Below, piece by piece: positions 2,166 through 62,876 of a DNA stretch of 64,000 nucleotides. The DNA lies in contig CAWBOS010000010.1 of the NCBI GenBank assembly GCA_963790475.1, forward strand, positions 1,632,001 to 1,696,000. The letters are read 5' to 3'. The number at the start of each line of letters is the position of its first letter. Within the stretch, counting starts at the first letter, position 1. The notes under the pieces are model-generated. The model made no database searches. It was not told the DNA's origin and saw nothing but the letters and a program-made list of their open reading frames with translations. Source of the DNA: an uncultured delta proteobacterium. GTDB lineage: Bacteria > Desulfobacterota > RBG-13-43-22. The position numbers were made by a program, and so were the translations under genes.

Positions 2166-2435
2166 CTCGGAAGAGCTGCAAAAAATAATGACAATCTGAA
2201 AAATTGTTCGGACCGAAACTTTAAGAAGTTTAATTTCGGGATAACATTATTACTGATAATCTCGTAATATGTCGTCATGCCGGTGAAAACCGGTCCCGCC
2301 TATAATTGTGCCATATGGCATTGAATGGTAAAATGATGATCATGATTGGTAAAGGAGTTAAGTCTACCCAGGCGAAGAAATCCAAGCCACGGGTTAGACC
2401 GAAATCCGTTTTTCAACCTCAAGGGGAGGACCGGC

Positions 2436-3257
2436 ATGATCAACAACTCAGCACTCCAAAAATGGGATCGACTGGCCCAGAAACAATTGGATCGACAGTT
2501 CATGAATGAAATCATCCAAGGTCTGCAATGCTCGCCTTTCGAAGCCGGTGCCATCCTGGACACCGTCTACAAAGTGTATCGACCTTATTTTGAAACCAGT
2601 GGCACGCTTAAGCCAGGGCAATTACTCTTTCAGGTAATTGCGGTGGAAGCGTCCCCGAATAAACCTTTAGCTCAGGGCCGACAAGTGACCGTAACGCTGA
2701 CTCTCGATTCCGGTCCGGAGGACCTGAAGATCCGAAAGCAAAAAGGGATCATCGGACTCAGGCAGCACCGACTCCAGCGGGTTTGTCACGAAGCCTTCCA
2801 ACAAGGAGGCTTGTTGACCCTGGAGGACTTGGCCAATCGGTTGTTCAATTGTGGCGAAAGAACCCTGTCTCGAGATCTACAGGCCCTCCAAGAAAAAAAG
2901 GTTCTCTTGCCCCTTCGTTCCACGATTAAAGATATGGGCCGTTCCATTTCCCATCGTAACCTAATCGTCCAGGAATGGCTCCAAGGAAAAGAATATACCG
3001 AAATCGCTCAGACCACCCATCATAGTATTCCTGCCATAAAAAACTATATCGACAAATTCAAACGGGTCATCGCTTTAACCGAGGAAGGATTTGACCGCCA
3101 TACCATCGCCTTCCTGGTCAAACTTTCGGCTCAACTGGTTGAAGTCTATTATCAGCTTTATCAAACTCTTACGATCGTTCCTCATCGGAAAGAAGAATTG
3201 CGCCTTTTTCTAAAAAAAAAGAGCCCCTTCCCGACGCCGCCCAGGAGGATCCGATGA
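2436..3257 (+). CDS. DUF1670-domain protein A
   Basis: EAFQQGGLLTLEDLA...P.R..IKDMGRSISHR...HSIPAIKNY. RBS GGAGG before ATG 2436. Confidence 0.8.
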   Translation: MINNSALQKWDRLAQKQLDRQFMNEIIQGLQCSPFEAGAILDTVYKVYRPYFETSGTLKPGQLLFQVIAVEASPNKPLAQGRQVTVTLTLDSGPEDLKIRKQKGIIGLRQHRLQRVCHEAFQQGGLLTLEDLANRLFNCGERTLSRDLQALQEKKVLLPLRSTIKDMGRSISHRNLIVQEWLQGKEYTEIAQTTHHSIPAIKNYIDKFKRVIALTEEGFDRHTIAFLVKLSAQLVEVYYQLYQTLTIVPHRKEELRLFLKKKSPFPTPPRRIR

Positions 3258-4003
3258 TTAAAGCGCCGGACAGTCAAAAACGATATAACGCCGCCAGAGA
3301 TCGCTTCCTCCAGGCGGGAATGATCAACTTTTTCGCCCGTGAATTCCCCAAACTCTTTGGCCCAGTGATGCGGCAAAAACTGGCCGAAGAAATTGTTGGT
3401 CTTTTTGAAAGCCTATCCCCGGAAGTCAAGCGACTGAAACCGGGGCAAATCCTTTGGAATGCCCTGGACCAGAAAACACGGGGCGATTCACCCCGCCGCA
3501 GATATGTTCCGGTCGTGTTATCCATCATTACCCCGGAGGATGTAGAACGACTGGCTCAAGGCCAGCCCCTGTCCCAGATCGCTGAAAAGGCCATCGCCCG
3601 CATAATCTTGGAAGCTCATGACCAAGGCGGCATCCTTTCCATGCGCGATATCGGCTTGCTCCTCTTAAAACATCCATCCCAGGTCTCTCGGTTAAGAAAA
3701 AATTATGAGAAAGATCAGGGCTGCACTCTGCCGCATACCGGTGCCTTACATGACATGGGATCTTGTCTGTCCCATAAAACCACCATTCTGCAGAAGGTAC
3801 TTGTCGAAAAAAAAGATCCGGCCGATGTCGCCAGAGAATGTCGTCATACTCAGCAAGCGGTCGACCGATACCTTAAAGACTATCATCGTGTTAAAACGGT
3901 TTATGACCAAAACCAAGACCTAAATTATATCCATATCGTAACCGGATTAGCCAAACATGTGGTTAAACAGTACATTAACATCGTCAATCATGAAAACTTT
4001 TAA
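3254..4003 (+). CDS. DUF1670-domain protein B
   Basis: EAHDQGGILSMRDIG...HDMGSCLSHK...HTQQAVDRY, paralogous to the upstream ORF. ATGA overlap, AGGAGG RBS. Confidence 0.8.
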   Translation: MIKAPDSQKRYNAARDRFLQAGMINFFAREFPKLFGPVMRQKLAEEIVGLFESLSPEVKRLKPGQILWNALDQKTRGDSPRRRYVPVVLSIITPEDVERLAQGQPLSQIAEKAIARIILEAHDQGGILSMRDIGLLLLKHPSQVSRLRKNYEKDQGCTLPHTGALHDMGSCLSHKTTILQKVLVEKKDPADVARECRHTQQAVDRYLKDYHRVKTVYDQNQDLNYIHIVTGLAKHVVKQYINIVNHENF

Positions 4004-4398
4004 CTTGACCCGCCATTTGGCGATAACTTTGGCGGGATGGATTCCGACTTTCGTCAGAATGACAAAAATATGCTTTCCGTTATTTTTTCGAGATCATTTT
4101 TGATCGATTCCGATATTTTAAGGATTACAATTCCATATATTTTACTGCCGTAGTAGTATTTAACCCCTTCCTGTTTTTACCGCTCCTCCCCATATTCTTT
4201 TTTTTCAAATTTAGACCGATAGTAATGCTAATAAATCAGCACTGTAGATTGATAGGCTTTAAAGAATAAGCTTAAAAATCTATTGGTGATAAAAATTGAA
4301 ATTTGTATTACTATATAAATTGCTTCTTTAATTGATCCGATCATAAGGCGATTTAGTCGTTATCCGACCCTGAAACAAAAAAGGAAGGGAAAGAAGAG

Positions 4399-7515: not shown

Positions 7516-9441
7516 CTAAGCTAAACCCTTCCGAATATCCAGATCCGCGGCGATATCATCCAGTCCGAGTTGGTGAAGTTTTTCTTTGGTCTGCAACCCG
7601 GAACCCGGGTTCCAACCGCGCAATCGGTAATACTCGGTCTTCATGGACTCGAATTGTTCCCGGTCAACCACTGCCCCTTTTCTGCTGATCGTTTCGCCCC
7701 CCTTTCCGGGGGCCAAACATTCCGGATTCAGGAAAGTCTCTTTCAAGGGTATTGTGTAAAACATCTCATGGATACGGTCGGCCTGTCTCCCCATATGACC
7801 TTCCCGGGTCAGAATGGCTCTCTGCAAATTGAATATGCGCTCACCGGTTTGATTCAAACCCGCTTCATCCGTTTCCCTGCCGGTCACCGCCGAGTAGATC
7901 CGGCTCTCCAGCGCCGGATCGCCTTTGTGATCTTCCGAGCAAACCACATCGGTGATCGGCCAGGAAAAATCGCAGAGGATCAGGCTTTCCTTGGCATATT
8001 CCCGGTCTTGGACTAATTTGGCTGCCAGGGCTTTCCCGTTGTAGGTGGAAAAATCAGCCCCTTCTTCACTGCCCCAGAATGTCTTAGCTATCCAGCGGAC
8101 CAGATCGGTGGACATATAAGCCTCCGGATTACCCCCCAACCAACTCACCCATTTGAGGACAGGGCTCCTGACGGCATGAAGCTGCTGAATCGGCTGGCGT
8201 GGTTCGGTGGCATAAAATATTCCAGTGGTGATATACATTCGGGGACAATAGGCCGGACCGTGGTCGGCGATGGAAATCTGGTCGGCAATCAACTCCGGGG
8301 CCCCCTGCCCTATTATTTCAGCGGCCCGGGTTGTGCCCTGGGCCAGGATATCGCCGATGCCTTCCCGGAAAGAAATCTTTTTGGCCAGGGCTTCGATGAA
8401 TTCGAGGCTGCCGATTTGAGCCAGAGGCAGGCCGGTGTTTTCTTCAGTGAATATTCCTGCCCGGTGACCGCGAAAGAGCAAAGTGACGATCGAATCCATA
8501 ACCATGGTGTCAAACCCGTAGCTGTCGGCGATTCGGTTGGCAAAGAAAGGAACTTCAGTGCGTTCTCCAAAGAATTTCCAGGCTGCCTGGGCGTAGTACA
8601 TAGAAGACTGACACATGGTTTTACCCCGGGTGCCGTCTTTCGCTTGATAAATCAAACGACCGGTACAGGCCCCTATGCAACCAAAGCAGGCCTGCCTTCT
8701 CAATCCCGACCCTTCCGGCATGAGCTTTTCCAATGTTCCGGGTTTGAGTTTTTTCAGTTCTCTCACGTAGCCGACCAGTTCCCGCAACTTTTCCGGGTGG
8801 GCAGCTTTGATGCTTTGGTCCCCTTGAACCACGATGGCTTTCAGCTTTTTTGAGCCCATCACGGCACCAAACCCGCTGGAACCACTGGCATCGTTGTCTG
8901 CCAAAAGACCGGCAAAAGCGACTTGATTGTCTCCGGCCGGTCCGGTGGCCAGAACCCTCGTCTCCTGGCCCAAGGTCTCTTTAACGGCTTGGCGGACTTC
9001 CACCGCGCTTTTCAGCCACAGCCGGGAGGCATCCTTGATTTCAACTTTATCGTTGCGGATAGAGATATAAACCGGTTTGTCGGAAACCCCTTCCACAATT
9101 AATCCGTCATAACCGGCAAATTTTAAATGAGCCCCCCACTGGCCCCCCATGTTGGAATAACTGAAGGTGTGAGGATCGGCCGATGGAGACTTCGCACACA
9201 CCTGCCAGCGTGAACCTGATAAGCCCCCGAAACCGGCCAAAGGTCCGGTAACGAAGATCAGGCAGTTTTGAGGATGAAAGGCATCCACTTCCGGTGGCAC
9301 CAGGTCCCAATAGATTTTAGCGGCCAGACCTCGACCGCCGATAAAACGGTCCACGTATTGGGCCGTGGGAAGATGACTGATTTGTCCCGTGGATAAATTA
9401 ATCCTCAAGACCTTTCCGGCATAACCATATTCGTTTTCCAC
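7516..9441 (-). CDS. Aldehyde:ferredoxin oxidoreductase family (W-pterin)
   Basis: GGRGLA, AKSP, GPAG, G.GAVMGSKKLKAI, YY..RGW motifs. Confidence 0.92.
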   Translation of the reverse strand: MENEYGYAGKVLRINLSTGQISHLPTAQYVDRFIGGRGLAAKIYWDLVPPEVDAFHPQNCLIFVTGPLAGFGGLSGSRWQVCAKSPSADPHTFSYSNMGGQWGAHLKFAGYDGLIVEGVSDKPVYISIRNDKVEIKDASRLWLKSAVEVRQAVKETLGQETRVLATGPAGDNQVAFAGLLADNDASGSSGFGAVMGSKKLKAIVVQGDQSIKAAHPEKLRELVGYVRELKKLKPGTLEKLMPEGSGLRRQACFGCIGACTGRLIYQAKDGTRGKTMCQSSMYYAQAAWKFFGERTEVPFFANRIADSYGFDTMVMDSIVTLLFRGHRAGIFTEENTGLPLAQIGSLEFIEALAKKISFREGIGDILAQGTTRAAEIIGQGAPELIADQISIADHGPAYCPRMYITTGIFYATEPRQPIQQLHAVRSPVLKWVSWLGGNPEAYMSTDLVRWIAKTFWGSEEGADFSTYNGKALAAKLVQDREYAKESLILCDFSWPITDVVCSEDHKGDPALESRIYSAVTGRETDEAGLNQTGERIFNLQRAILTREGHMGRQADRIHEMFYTIPLKETFLNPECLAPGKGGETISRKGAVVDREQFESMKTEYYRLRGWNPGSGLQTKEKLHQLGLDDIAADLDIRKGLA

Positions 9442-9510
9442 AGAATAATCCTTTCAATTTACTATAGCGGACGATATAAATTTTTATCCGTAAAGGGCAC
9501 ACCCCTTGAC

Positions 9511-9578
9511 GTCATGCCGGACTTGATCCGGCATCCAGACAATTCAAAATCCTGGATTCCGGCTTTCGCCGGAATGAC
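9511..9578. repeat. REP-like palindromic repeat (GTCATnCCGG...CATCCAG...CTGGATTCCGGCTTTCGCCGGAATGAC)
   Basis: Two hairpins in inverted arrangement. Relatives at 24998, 42075 and 62645, and a split copy at 2274/4038. Confidence 0.85.
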
Positions 9579-9611
9579 AAGAATGGGCTCCAGCGACTTT
9601 TAATGAATCCG

Positions 9612-9881
9612 TCAACTCTCAATACGCTCCAATCCGAAAATGACCGTATTGGTATTATCCGGACATTGGAGTTCTTTTTTAAGATTGATCCAATCATTGG
9701 GAGAGGTCTCACGGCAATAAGCGGTCAGATAAGGAATAAGGGCCGGCAAGGCATACATACAAATCCCTTGGGGTCGGCCCGCTTCGATCATCAACCCGCC
9801 CTTGACATGAAAAAAATCACCGACCTTATAGCCTGCCGAACAATAACCTTTTACCGACTTAACGGTAAGTTTAGCATCCAT
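9612..9881 (-). CDS. TIGR04076 family small Cys protein
   Basis: V.G.C..G.KVGD, .C..A, QCPD...V.F..ER. Upstream of AOR. Confidence 0.8.
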   Translation of the reverse strand: MDAKLTVKSVKGYCSAGYKVGDFFHVKGGLMIEAGRPQGICMYALPALIPYLTAYCRETSPNDWINLKKELQCPDNTNTVIFGLERIES

Positions 9882-24643: not shown

Positions 24644-24997
24644 TGACCTTTAATAGAAGCATCAGTATAAAAACACGTCATCAAAGAACCCCGTGGTTAT
24701 GATCTGCGGCTTACCCAAGGAATATGAATAAGAAGGGGAGAAAAAGGACCGCGATTTTCAGGCGTCGCTCTTGATTTTTTTAAAGGTGGACATATCTTTA
24801 TAACATGAGATAAAAAAGCAGTTTCCCGAATTGCCATTTTTTCTCGATTGAAAACTACAGATCAGGGTCAATATGGGTTATCAACGAAAACCACAATCAA
24901 ATTTCACTTAAAATACCTAACCCGGACAAGCCGGAACCATAGTTGAAATATTGTAACATGTGGTGGATTCGTAAAAAGTCGCCGAAAGCCTATTTTC

Positions 24998-25075
24998 GTC
25001 ATTCCCTTGAAAAAGGGAATCCAGTGTTTTTAATAAGTTGAGAATAGCCTGGATTCCCGCCTCCGCGGGAATGAC
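24998..25075. repeat. REP-like palindromic repeat
   Basis: GTCATTCCC...GGGAATCCAG...CTGGATTCCCGC...GCGGGAATGAC. Confidence 0.85.
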
Positions 25076-25136
25076 GACGAAATATTCTATCCAATTTGAG
25101 TAGAATTCTATTCCTAAGTTACTAAAGGAAAAAGTG

Positions 25137-62544: not shown

Positions 62545-62644
62545 AATATTGAAAGATGCACAGAATTTATTCACCCCAGTAAGAGCTTTAGCCTGCGCTC
62601 CTCTCCTAATCAATACATAAACCACAAATTTCTCTTACGAAGTC

Positions 62645-62722
62645 GTCACCCCGGAGAAAGCCGGGGGTCCAGGAGAGTAAGCACGGTTAGAAACACTGGA
62701 TTCCGGCTTTCGCCGGAATGAC
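62645..62722. repeat. REP-like palindromic repeat
   Basis: GTCACCCCGG...GTCCAG...CTGGATTCCGGCTTTCGCCGGAATGAC. Confidence 0.85.
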
Positions 62723-62876
62723 GAACGCGGGCCTTTGATGTTTTTTTAGGATCTAATCAATAGTTGAGAAAAGTATCACATCTTTTAGTCTAAGAGTTTT
62801 CCTTCTACATTATCATGCTTGATGTTGCCCTCAAGGATATGAGCCTTTCATTGGTAATCTTGAACCCTGTTTTTAA

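Follow-up and report, generated by a model that had tools for sequence, protein, structure and literature searches.

What kind of DNA consists of two related genes and little else, inserted between the arms of a host repeat, and what would put it there? The locus in question lies in a 64,000-nucleotide stretch from an uncultured delta proteobacterium (assembly GCA_963790475.1, contig CAWBOS010000010.1), here called the window, which corresponds to G000:C10:1632001-1696000, where G000 is the source genome. An earlier note on this stretch had proposed that a pair of DUF1670 genes at 2274-4063 forms an insertion element of a new type. To our knowledge, PF07900 (DUF1670) has no assigned function. 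We conclude that the mobility of the element is well supported. That window positions 2301-4027 form an autonomous element of an unclassified family, resembling an insertion sequence (IS) and having hairpin-loop targeting and a junction promoter, is a model to which, as a whole, we give a probability of roughly 0.55. The features of the locus are as follows.

2274-2293, plus strand: left arm of a host composite repeat of repetitive extragenic palindromic (REP) type; flank, outside the element, with similar arms at many sites in the genome.
2294-2300, plus strand: C-rich 5' arm of the target hairpin, TCCCGCC, with the left end of the element attached at the 3' side of this arm.
2301-4027, plus strand: the mobile element proper, 1727 bp, TATAATTG...GGCGATAAC (TATAAT...GATAAC).
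2301-2320, plus strand: left end of the element, with a -10-like hexamer TATAAT (2301-2306) and the palindrome TGCCATATGGCA (2309-2320), a putative protein-binding site.
About 2362-2400, plus strand: predicted leader stem-loop upstream of orfA, based on RNAalifold and covariation and placed by a fold of the window.
2436-3257, plus strand: orfA, DUF1670 paralogue A, 273 amino acids, with a MINN start after GGGGAGG.
3254-4003, plus strand: orfB, DUF1670 paralogue B, 249 amino acids, overlapping orfA by 4 bp.
4004-4027, plus strand: right end of the element, CTTGACCCGCCATTTGGCGATAAC, with a -35-like hexamer TTGACC (4005-4010) and the palindrome GCCATTTGGC (4012-4021).
4028-4037, plus strand: loop TTT and G-rich 3' arm of the target hairpin, GGCGGGA, following the right tip.
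4038-4063, plus strand: right arm of the host REP-like composite repeat; flank, matching 12 other places in the genome and present in most congeners.

The earlier note had outlined the element by two 26-bp inverted repeats, TCCCGCCTATAATTGTGCCATATGGC at 2294-2319 and a partner at 4012-4037. We recovered this arrangement as described. The repeats are identical at 18 of 26 positions with the outer 7 perfect (for a match of at least 18/26 in one fixed pair, the binomial P is about 3e-6), they span 1744 bp, and open reading frames (ORFs) A and B fill the interior, the orfB stop ending at 4003, 8 bp short of the right repeat. Both ORFs are indeed DUF1670 genes, with PF07900 E values of 8e-47 for A (159.9 bits, model positions 17-220) and 5e-48 for B (163.7 bits, positions 13-220), against a cut-off of 25 bits and a model length of 220 positions.

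Two further copies are present in the genome. Copy 2 (C6:754431-756144) is 99 to 100% identical to the window element (copy 1) over the portion present, although its left REP arm carries base changes relative to the arm of copy 1. Copy 3 (C12:1412919-1413438) is a 520-bp fragment that is 100% identical to window 2301-2820. These three loci hold the only DUF1670 sequences of the genome (5 matches), and a genome search for other sequences with the same ends returned none beyond the three copies and one chance match with 4 mismatches. We found 1048 homologues at an E value of 0.001 or lower. Short contigs, of 3.5 kb or less, are the only source of 111 of the best 120, a pattern that an assembly-breaking repeat would produce.

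We examined 103 loci: that of the window, 22 in species genomes, and 80 metagenomic ones. Of these, 76 have the two conserved ends, 1697 to 1769 bp apart; the others have the left end only (7), the right end only (18), or neither (2) and are mostly cut by contig ends. The order A then B is complete in 19 of the 22 genome loci, the other 3 being cut by contig ends. Fifteen clusters of elements that are at least 97% identical occur in at least 2 different flanks each. Ends and gene pair occur together across hosts down to 47% protein identity, and record titles and taxa report the family from metagenome-assembled genomes of many bacterial phyla and of archaea. Five other genomes have one assembled copy each, with an additional degenerate fragment in G065, although copy number is uninformative here since assemblies collapse repeats. 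A tblastn search of plasmids with B gave no match. Within the lineage itself the distribution is patchy: PF07900 exceeds the cut-off in 2 of 61 related genomes (G000 counted), namely G000 and G019, which has a broken 89-codon fragment. Among 13 congeners, 12 are without any DUF1670 match and the thirteenth has a sub-threshold fragment of 22 bits.

The locus has the generic properties of an insertion sequence: several nearly identical copies lie in different contexts, the ends are defined, and all of the genes relate to mobility. The alternative is that the pair is a conserved two-gene regulatory operon, not mobile and flanked by REPs by chance. The resemblance of the proteins to transcription factors fits such an operon, but the identical copies at three loci, the 15 near-identical clusters in different flanks, and the conserved termini do not, nor do the 12 of 13 congeners without a match and the lack of conserved synteny. 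This reading is already contradicted, and we regard it as barely credible. The earlier note had named identical copies in different flanks as the observation to look for, and near-identical ones were found; it had named a lack of conserved ends, constant synteny, or a match to a known IS family as grounds for dropping the idea, and we find that the ends are conserved, that synteny is not fixed, and that the proteins match no transposase in Pfam or NCBIfam.

Copy 3 interrupts a minus-strand gene of the AcrB/AcrD/AcrF family (L003, C12:1411414-1414938). By reading of the sequence, a TAG stands in frame in this gene, a few codons away from where the fragment is inserted. The region of copy 3 and its flanks had no match among the 13 congeners; the region may be foreign DNA or bin contamination, the contamination estimate for the genome being 9.68%.

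Where does the element end? All 3 independent left junctions in the genome begin at TATAAT (TATAATTG). They are preceded by ...CCGGTCCCGCC in two cases and by ...ATCACCACC in one. The composite CCGGTCCCGCC-N2-4-GGCGGGATGGAT occurs without any element at 6 sites in this genome, with spacers TA, AAA, or AAAG, compared to 0 sites for a reversed-pattern control. Two congeners without DUF1670, G012 and G007, have one such site each. Because the unoccupied composite is found both here and in DUF1670-free congeners, the outer TCCCGCC/GGCGGGA is the stem of a pre-existing target hairpin rather than the termini of the element, which is 2301-4027. The TCCCGCC-type tips that had been taken for element ends are therefore target sequence.

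We analyzed the target further with 65 distinct flank pairs. The left flank follows the consensus CCC(G/T)(C/T)(C/T), with C in 54, 56, and 64 of the 65 at the first three positions, then G in 38 or T in 22, C in 45 or T in 20, and C in 48 or T in 17. Past the right tip, 2 to 3 bases vary between loci, and the sequence then complements the left flank. Perfect flank stems 6 bp or longer were present at 39 of 65 loci, compared to about 15 of 65 when the right flanks were reassigned to other loci; with a minimum of 7 bp, the values were 30 and about 6.6. The complementarity extends outward into locus-specific sequence, giving stems as long as 13 bp at L098 and 25 bp at L045; at L028, the left and right flanks combined rebuild a REP unit like the intact one at window 24998. 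The order at the insertion site is always C-rich arm, loop, and G-rich arm, and the left end of the element adjoins the C-rich arm, just before the 2- to 4-nt loop. Elements of one subfamily share this left end and occupy CCCTTT|NNN-AAAGGG hairpins, and a few elements sit in C(C)TCC|NNN-GGAG(G).

These data bear directly on the exact version of the earlier note, in which the 26-bp repeats, including TCCCGCC/GGCGGGA, are the termini and 2294-4037 splits a REP palindrome between ...CCGG and TGGATTCC... That version draws on the 18/26 match with its 7 perfect outer bases and on the fact that CCCGCC/GGCGGG flanks most family members. It is already contradicted, and very improbable in our judgment, since the composite hairpin exists without the element (6 sites here and two DUF1670-free congeners), the complementarity of the flanks goes beyond 6 bp in a locus-specific manner, copy 3 joins TATAAT directly to ...CACCACC, and CCCTTT/AAAGGG flanks take the place of CCCGCC/GGCGGG in a subfamily whose left end is the same.

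In 65 of 65 cases (48 C and 17 T), the element and its left flank finish with the same base, and there is no longer duplication. The earlier claim that a target-site duplication is absent is therefore correct for multi-base duplications, but one base is shared by the left flank and the element end. This single base would be either a 1-bp duplication or a 1-bp crossover core.

The note had also identified the flanks as arms of a REP-like palindrome seen intact at 9511, 24998, and 62645. The flanks are REP-like arms, but those three palindromes are not the intact version of this site; they are related REP pairs with similar arms, 13- to 24-bp spacers, and no central CCCGCC...GGCGGG hairpin, and the true unoccupied equivalents lie elsewhere in the genome. 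The windows around them (9431-9630, 24918-25117, and 62565-62764) contain inverted pairs of REP units (GTCATnCC...GGAATCCAG / CTGGATTCC...GGAATGAC) in an arrangement like that of bacterial interspersed mosaic elements (BIMEs), and the arms of these pairs also occur in most genomes of the genus. A second composite family has this CCCGCC-loop-GGCGGG hairpin at its center (...CCCATCTAT-hairpin-ATTGCCCTCATCC...GACGTACTTCTACGTACGTC...). Its sites are C12:359426, C10:1619443, C6:673656, C10:398379, C12:264992, and the right flank of copy 2 (C6:756139-756260); the left flank of copy 2 belongs to the other family. Finally, an identical block, ...TTTAGTTGATTTAGAAACC-CCCGCCCTAAGGGCGGG-GTCATGTGGACTGGCTATGCCGGTCCCGAATGGGCTTGGCTGAAA, is present in at least 7 copies (C10:353396, 602813, 893418, 971229, and 985140, the last in reverse; C12:1090731 and 1227843) and resembles the terminus of a further multi-copy element or family of repeats.

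The element has a palindrome, GCCA-N2-TGGC, near either end, at a distance of 9 bp from the left tip and 6 bp from the right one. The GCCA/TGGC arms are intact at the left in 67 of 76 elements and at the right in 72 of 76. All 13 departures are uncompensated: at the left 9 are broken and 0 compensated, and at the right 4 are broken. Since changes are not compensated, the palindromes look like operators for a dimeric helix-turn-helix (HTH) protein, not like hairpins maintained by pairing.

The outermost bases carry a second signal. The element opens with TATAAT or TATATT in 73 of 76 cases, and in 63 of 76 an outward-facing TTGACN is placed at exactly 17 nt from the right tip. Abutting the two ends would give TTGACN-17 nt-TATAAT, which agrees with the consensus at 10 or more of 12 positions in 72 of 76 elements and at all 12 in 18; in the integrated form, the best promoter-like site near the left end scores only 8 to 10. 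This split promoter, the strongest clue to the mechanism, implies a circular or tandem intermediate whose right and left tips are joined.

Between the left end and orfA, RNAalifold with 16 leaders predicts a stem-loop. In the alignment, 90.8% of cells are paired compared to 66.6% in shuffles, none of 500 shuffles being as high, and double changes occur in 15 of 15 pairs; slid controls reach at most 50%. The stem-loop could act as an RNA structure in the 5' untranslated region or as single-stranded DNA. Its conserved loop is the same in CCCGCC- and CCCTTT-targeting subfamilies, with complementarity judged by inspection. Because the loop is constant across target subfamilies, the leader is more likely regulatory than a guide. 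We rejected the reading of this region as an N-terminal extension of A (...RKEGVARLEF...), since in L035, L041, and L043 the frame is closed 8 to 16 codons upstream and the motif and covarying stem persist. An Rfam search of 2200-4100 gave only a chance microRNA match (E of 0.66).

In many elements (L027-L031, L034, L036, and L038-L040), the orfA frame is open upstream through the left end and into the flank, for 53 to 59 codons. Where the frame is open, translation entering from a host gene could read into A.

What, then, do the two proteins do? A and B are about 25% identical. Intact calls for both ORFs were obtained in 68 of 76 elements (an ATG-only heuristic accounts for the other 8), and the MINN start and ribosome-binding site of orfA are conserved. 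At the A-B junction, the other 67 of these 68 elements range from a 26-bp overlap to a 50-bp gap, with overlaps of 8, 4, and 17 bp the most common. Values of dN/dS from 6 pairs (0.10 to 0.33 for A and 0.07 to 0.13 for B) indicate that both genes are under purifying selection. There is no third conserved gene in the element; the longest minus-strand frames (80 to 319 codons) are clade specific, which rules out a conserved antisense gene. The family is large: an exhaustive HMMER search of a library of 1.8 billion proteins returned 948 clusters at 50% identity with E values of 0.001 or lower, of which 478 were at 1e-10 or lower. A search of the ESM Atlas returned DUF1670 clusters only.

Several lines of evidence suggest that A and B act together. 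The predicted A+B complex had an ipSAE of 0.43 compared to 0.01 for the best control, which the tool rates as "weak support"; among solved complexes the ipSAE mark is attained by 58 of 80 and among mismatches by 2 of 110, and scores of 0.60 or below occur in only 7 of the 80 solved. At least 54% of the contacts agreed between runs, with partner pLDDT values of at least 71. A natural fusion of 532 amino acids (P0237) has halves that best match A and then B, and proteins of about 940 amino acids with at least 3 DUF1670 units were also found. Given the complex prediction, the natural fusion, and the frequently overlapping genes, hetero-oligomerization of A and B is likely.

The AlphaFold models are of moderate quality (pLDDT of 76.8 for B and 71.8 for A; pTM of 0.50 and 0.41). 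They consist of two long N-terminal helices and a beta-hairpin, followed by helical HTH or winged-helix modules. PHROGs and PADLOC gave marginal HTH/WYL-type matches for A (E of 0.009 and 0.003) and none for B. In 55 distinct sequences of each paralogue, 24 positions are at least 95% conserved in both, including R, E, D, D, S-H, H, Y, R, and Y (in B numbering, R116, E120, D132, D167, S173, H174, H198, Y206, R212, and Y240). B also has an H/C cluster made of H161, H166, C171, and C196.

The earlier note had seen no DDE, HUH, serine-recombinase, or DEDD motif, and we agree that no such family is matched in Pfam or NCBIfam, the latter including models built on ISfinder families. Likewise, there is no resolvase or phage-integrase match in Pfam or NCBIfam that would signal a serine or tyrosine recombinase. 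The usual marks of DDE elements (IS3, IS30, IS630, and others) are missing too, with no DDE/rve domain in Pfam or NCBIfam and no duplication of more than 1 base. RuvC-like, RNase-H-like, and serine- or tyrosine-recombinase folds are absent from the Foldseek matches, although models of moderate quality leave room for a divergent, all-helical active site. An unclassified IS type, as the earlier note had proposed, thus stands insofar as the element is mobile, IS-like, and outside every transposase family tested, but catalysis by DUF1670 is reached by elimination only. We consider it because nothing else is conserved inside the element and no other element with the same ends exists in the genome. 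On this basis, we regard it as about an even bet that DUF1670 itself is the recombinase.

The fuller proposal is that A and B form a recombinase of an undescribed class, without a DDE, DEDD, HUH, or serine- or tyrosine-recombinase fold, whose HTH modules would read the hairpin and insert a circularized element without duplication, the target specificity being set by the protein and differing by subfamily (CCCGCC versus CCCTTT). To this we give slightly less than even odds. In the main model of an autonomous element, an A/B hetero-oligomer would bind the GCCA-N2-TGGC palindromes and synapse the element ends. The element would leave, or be copied, with its right tip abutting its left tip, as a circle or with a head-to-tail junction. 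The junction would assemble the near-consensus promoter TTGACN-17 nt-TATAAT, driving a burst of orfA-orfB expression through the structured leader, and would then recombine site specifically with a hairpin or palindrome target at the arm/loop boundary. The chemistry would be conservative and recombinase-like, not a staggered DDE cut.

In a comparison of 38 CCCGCC-targeting with 18 CCCTTT-targeting elements, 10 columns of B and 4 of A have no shared residue, a difference that is confounded by phylogeny. In window numbering, these include B 77, 78, 83, 171, 196, and 208, among others, and A 11, 149, 189, and 223. The B columns include the conserved TRGDSP loop of the beta-hairpin.

The main rival is that the element is mobile but A and B serve only as specificity factors, recognizing DNA and regulating, with a host enzyme (a Xer-type recombinase, a topoisomerase, or replication and repair acting on hairpins) doing the cutting and joining. 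Both models do look like multi-HTH regulators with no recognizable active-site fold, and the end palindromes behave as classic operators of dimeric HTH proteins. Nevertheless, occurrence in many bacterial phyla and in archaea would require a near-universal host factor, the ends show no visible resemblance to dif-like sites by inspection, and the roughly 24 residues that are at least 95% conserved in both paralogues are more than DNA binding alone usually needs. We hold this rival to be unlikely, though a serious one. Still less probable is that the element is a non-autonomous cargo derivative, its ends recognized in trans by an unrelated transposase, with the DUF1670 pair as passenger regulators. 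It would explain why no known catalytic domain is found inside the element. However, the genome has no other sequence with these ends, the A-B pair fills all 76 complete elements with both genes under purifying selection, and ends and gene pair travel together across hosts down to 47% protein identity.

Returning to catalysis by DUF1670 and the model of the autonomous element, several results weigh against them. Foldseek against the PDB gave no match at an E value of 0.001 or lower for either model, the best being MntR, sigma/TFIIB-like, and LuxR/MarR regulators; a profile search of PDB sequences yielded only ArsR (E of 0.84); Pfam returned, at E values of 0.1 or lower, DUF1670 plus sub-threshold HTH families, and NCBIfam nothing. 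Word-index and exhaustive HMMER searches found no nuclease, recombinase, or catalytic partner domain fused to DUF1670. Nor is the leader loop an obvious target guide, being unchanged between subfamilies with different targets, and we rejected that reading. A circle junction was not seen in 4 sequencing runs, of which assembled contigs only were used, and this bears neither way on excision. Nor did we find a true empty allele of copy 1, since the congeners (76 to 82% identity) split the two flanking genes. Finally, only copy 1 keeps an intact right end in this genome. Copy 2 is without the last 13 nt, ends in ...CTTGACCCGCC, and has flanks from two different REP families, and copy 3 is a 5' fragment ending in ...GTTGACCC; the model accounts for neither. 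Both truncated ends lie just after TTGACCC and finish in a C-run resembling the target arm, a hint that a motif resembling the target may be taken in error for the right cleavage site.

A candidate empty allele, the joint from 2300 to 4031 with AAA in runs X2 and X4, proved to be a paralogous unoccupied REP whose loose ends match C12:963343. Two other proteins combine DUF1670 with further sequence. P0275 (450 amino acids) has a C-terminal DUF1670 part fused to an N-terminal fragment of UvrD helicase, and P0198 (400 amino acids) has a full DUF1670 and, after it, a DnaG-type CHC2 zinc ribbon. Both may stem from read-through at insertions into host genes or be artifacts.

Taken together, these data describe a genuine, widespread IS-like family whose only genes are two DUF1670 paralogues, for which a catalytic role is plausible. 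We found no publication on DUF1670 or PF07900 in the literature searched, and a broader search turned up nothing relevant; supplements and ISfinder lay outside that scope, so a curated entry is possible. All characterized prokaryotic insertion sequences that we know of use one of a handful of enzyme classes. If the DUF1670 proteins catalyze, they would constitute a new and compact transposase or recombinase class, made of two proteins of about 250 amino acids, and their precise, scarless insertion at short palindromes would be of interest for genome engineering. If a host enzyme is recruited instead, this would be a new way of IS parasitism. In both cases, DUF1670 is given a function that can be tested, one more specific invader is added for REP and terminator-like hairpins, and there is an annotation rule for a repeat that now breaks assemblies and is labeled "hypothetical protein."

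How does this element compare with known systems? IS1397 and ISKpn1 of the IS3 family insert in the loops of REP/BIME units, use a DDE transposase with an orfA-orfB frameshift, and make 3- to 4-bp duplications. Insertion into a REP hairpin loop is common to both, but the DUF1670 element has no DDE/rve match and makes no such duplication. Elements of the IS200/IS605 group (IS608 and ISDra2) and the RAYT/TnpAREP Y1 transposases are associated with hairpin or REP DNA (PMC3333891, PMC6006769, PMC8266576). Like IS200/IS605, the DUF1670 element inserts directly 3' of a short specific sequence without duplication and has palindromes near each end. It differs from them in having no HUH/Y1 (Y1_Tnp) match and end palindromes that do not covary, and its junction-promoter design suggests a double-stranded joined form.

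In behavior, the closest relatives are the IS110/IS1111 elements (e.g., ISPpu9 and the IS621 type). These have one DEDD (RuvC-like) transposase with a target-complementary seekRNA or bridge RNA and form abutted-end or circular stages; the IS110 type forms a junction promoter. Unlike them, the DUF1670 element has no DEDD match but two HTH paralogues, a target-independent leader loop, and end palindromes of a protein-binding type. IS110/IS1111 elements insert specifically into REPs (PMC11187229, PMC12288879, PMC8450116). The DUF1670 element is like them in its REP- or palindrome-specific insertion, its lack of a classical duplication, its structured noncoding leader upstream of the gene, and its abutted-end or circular form, which here would follow from the split promoter.

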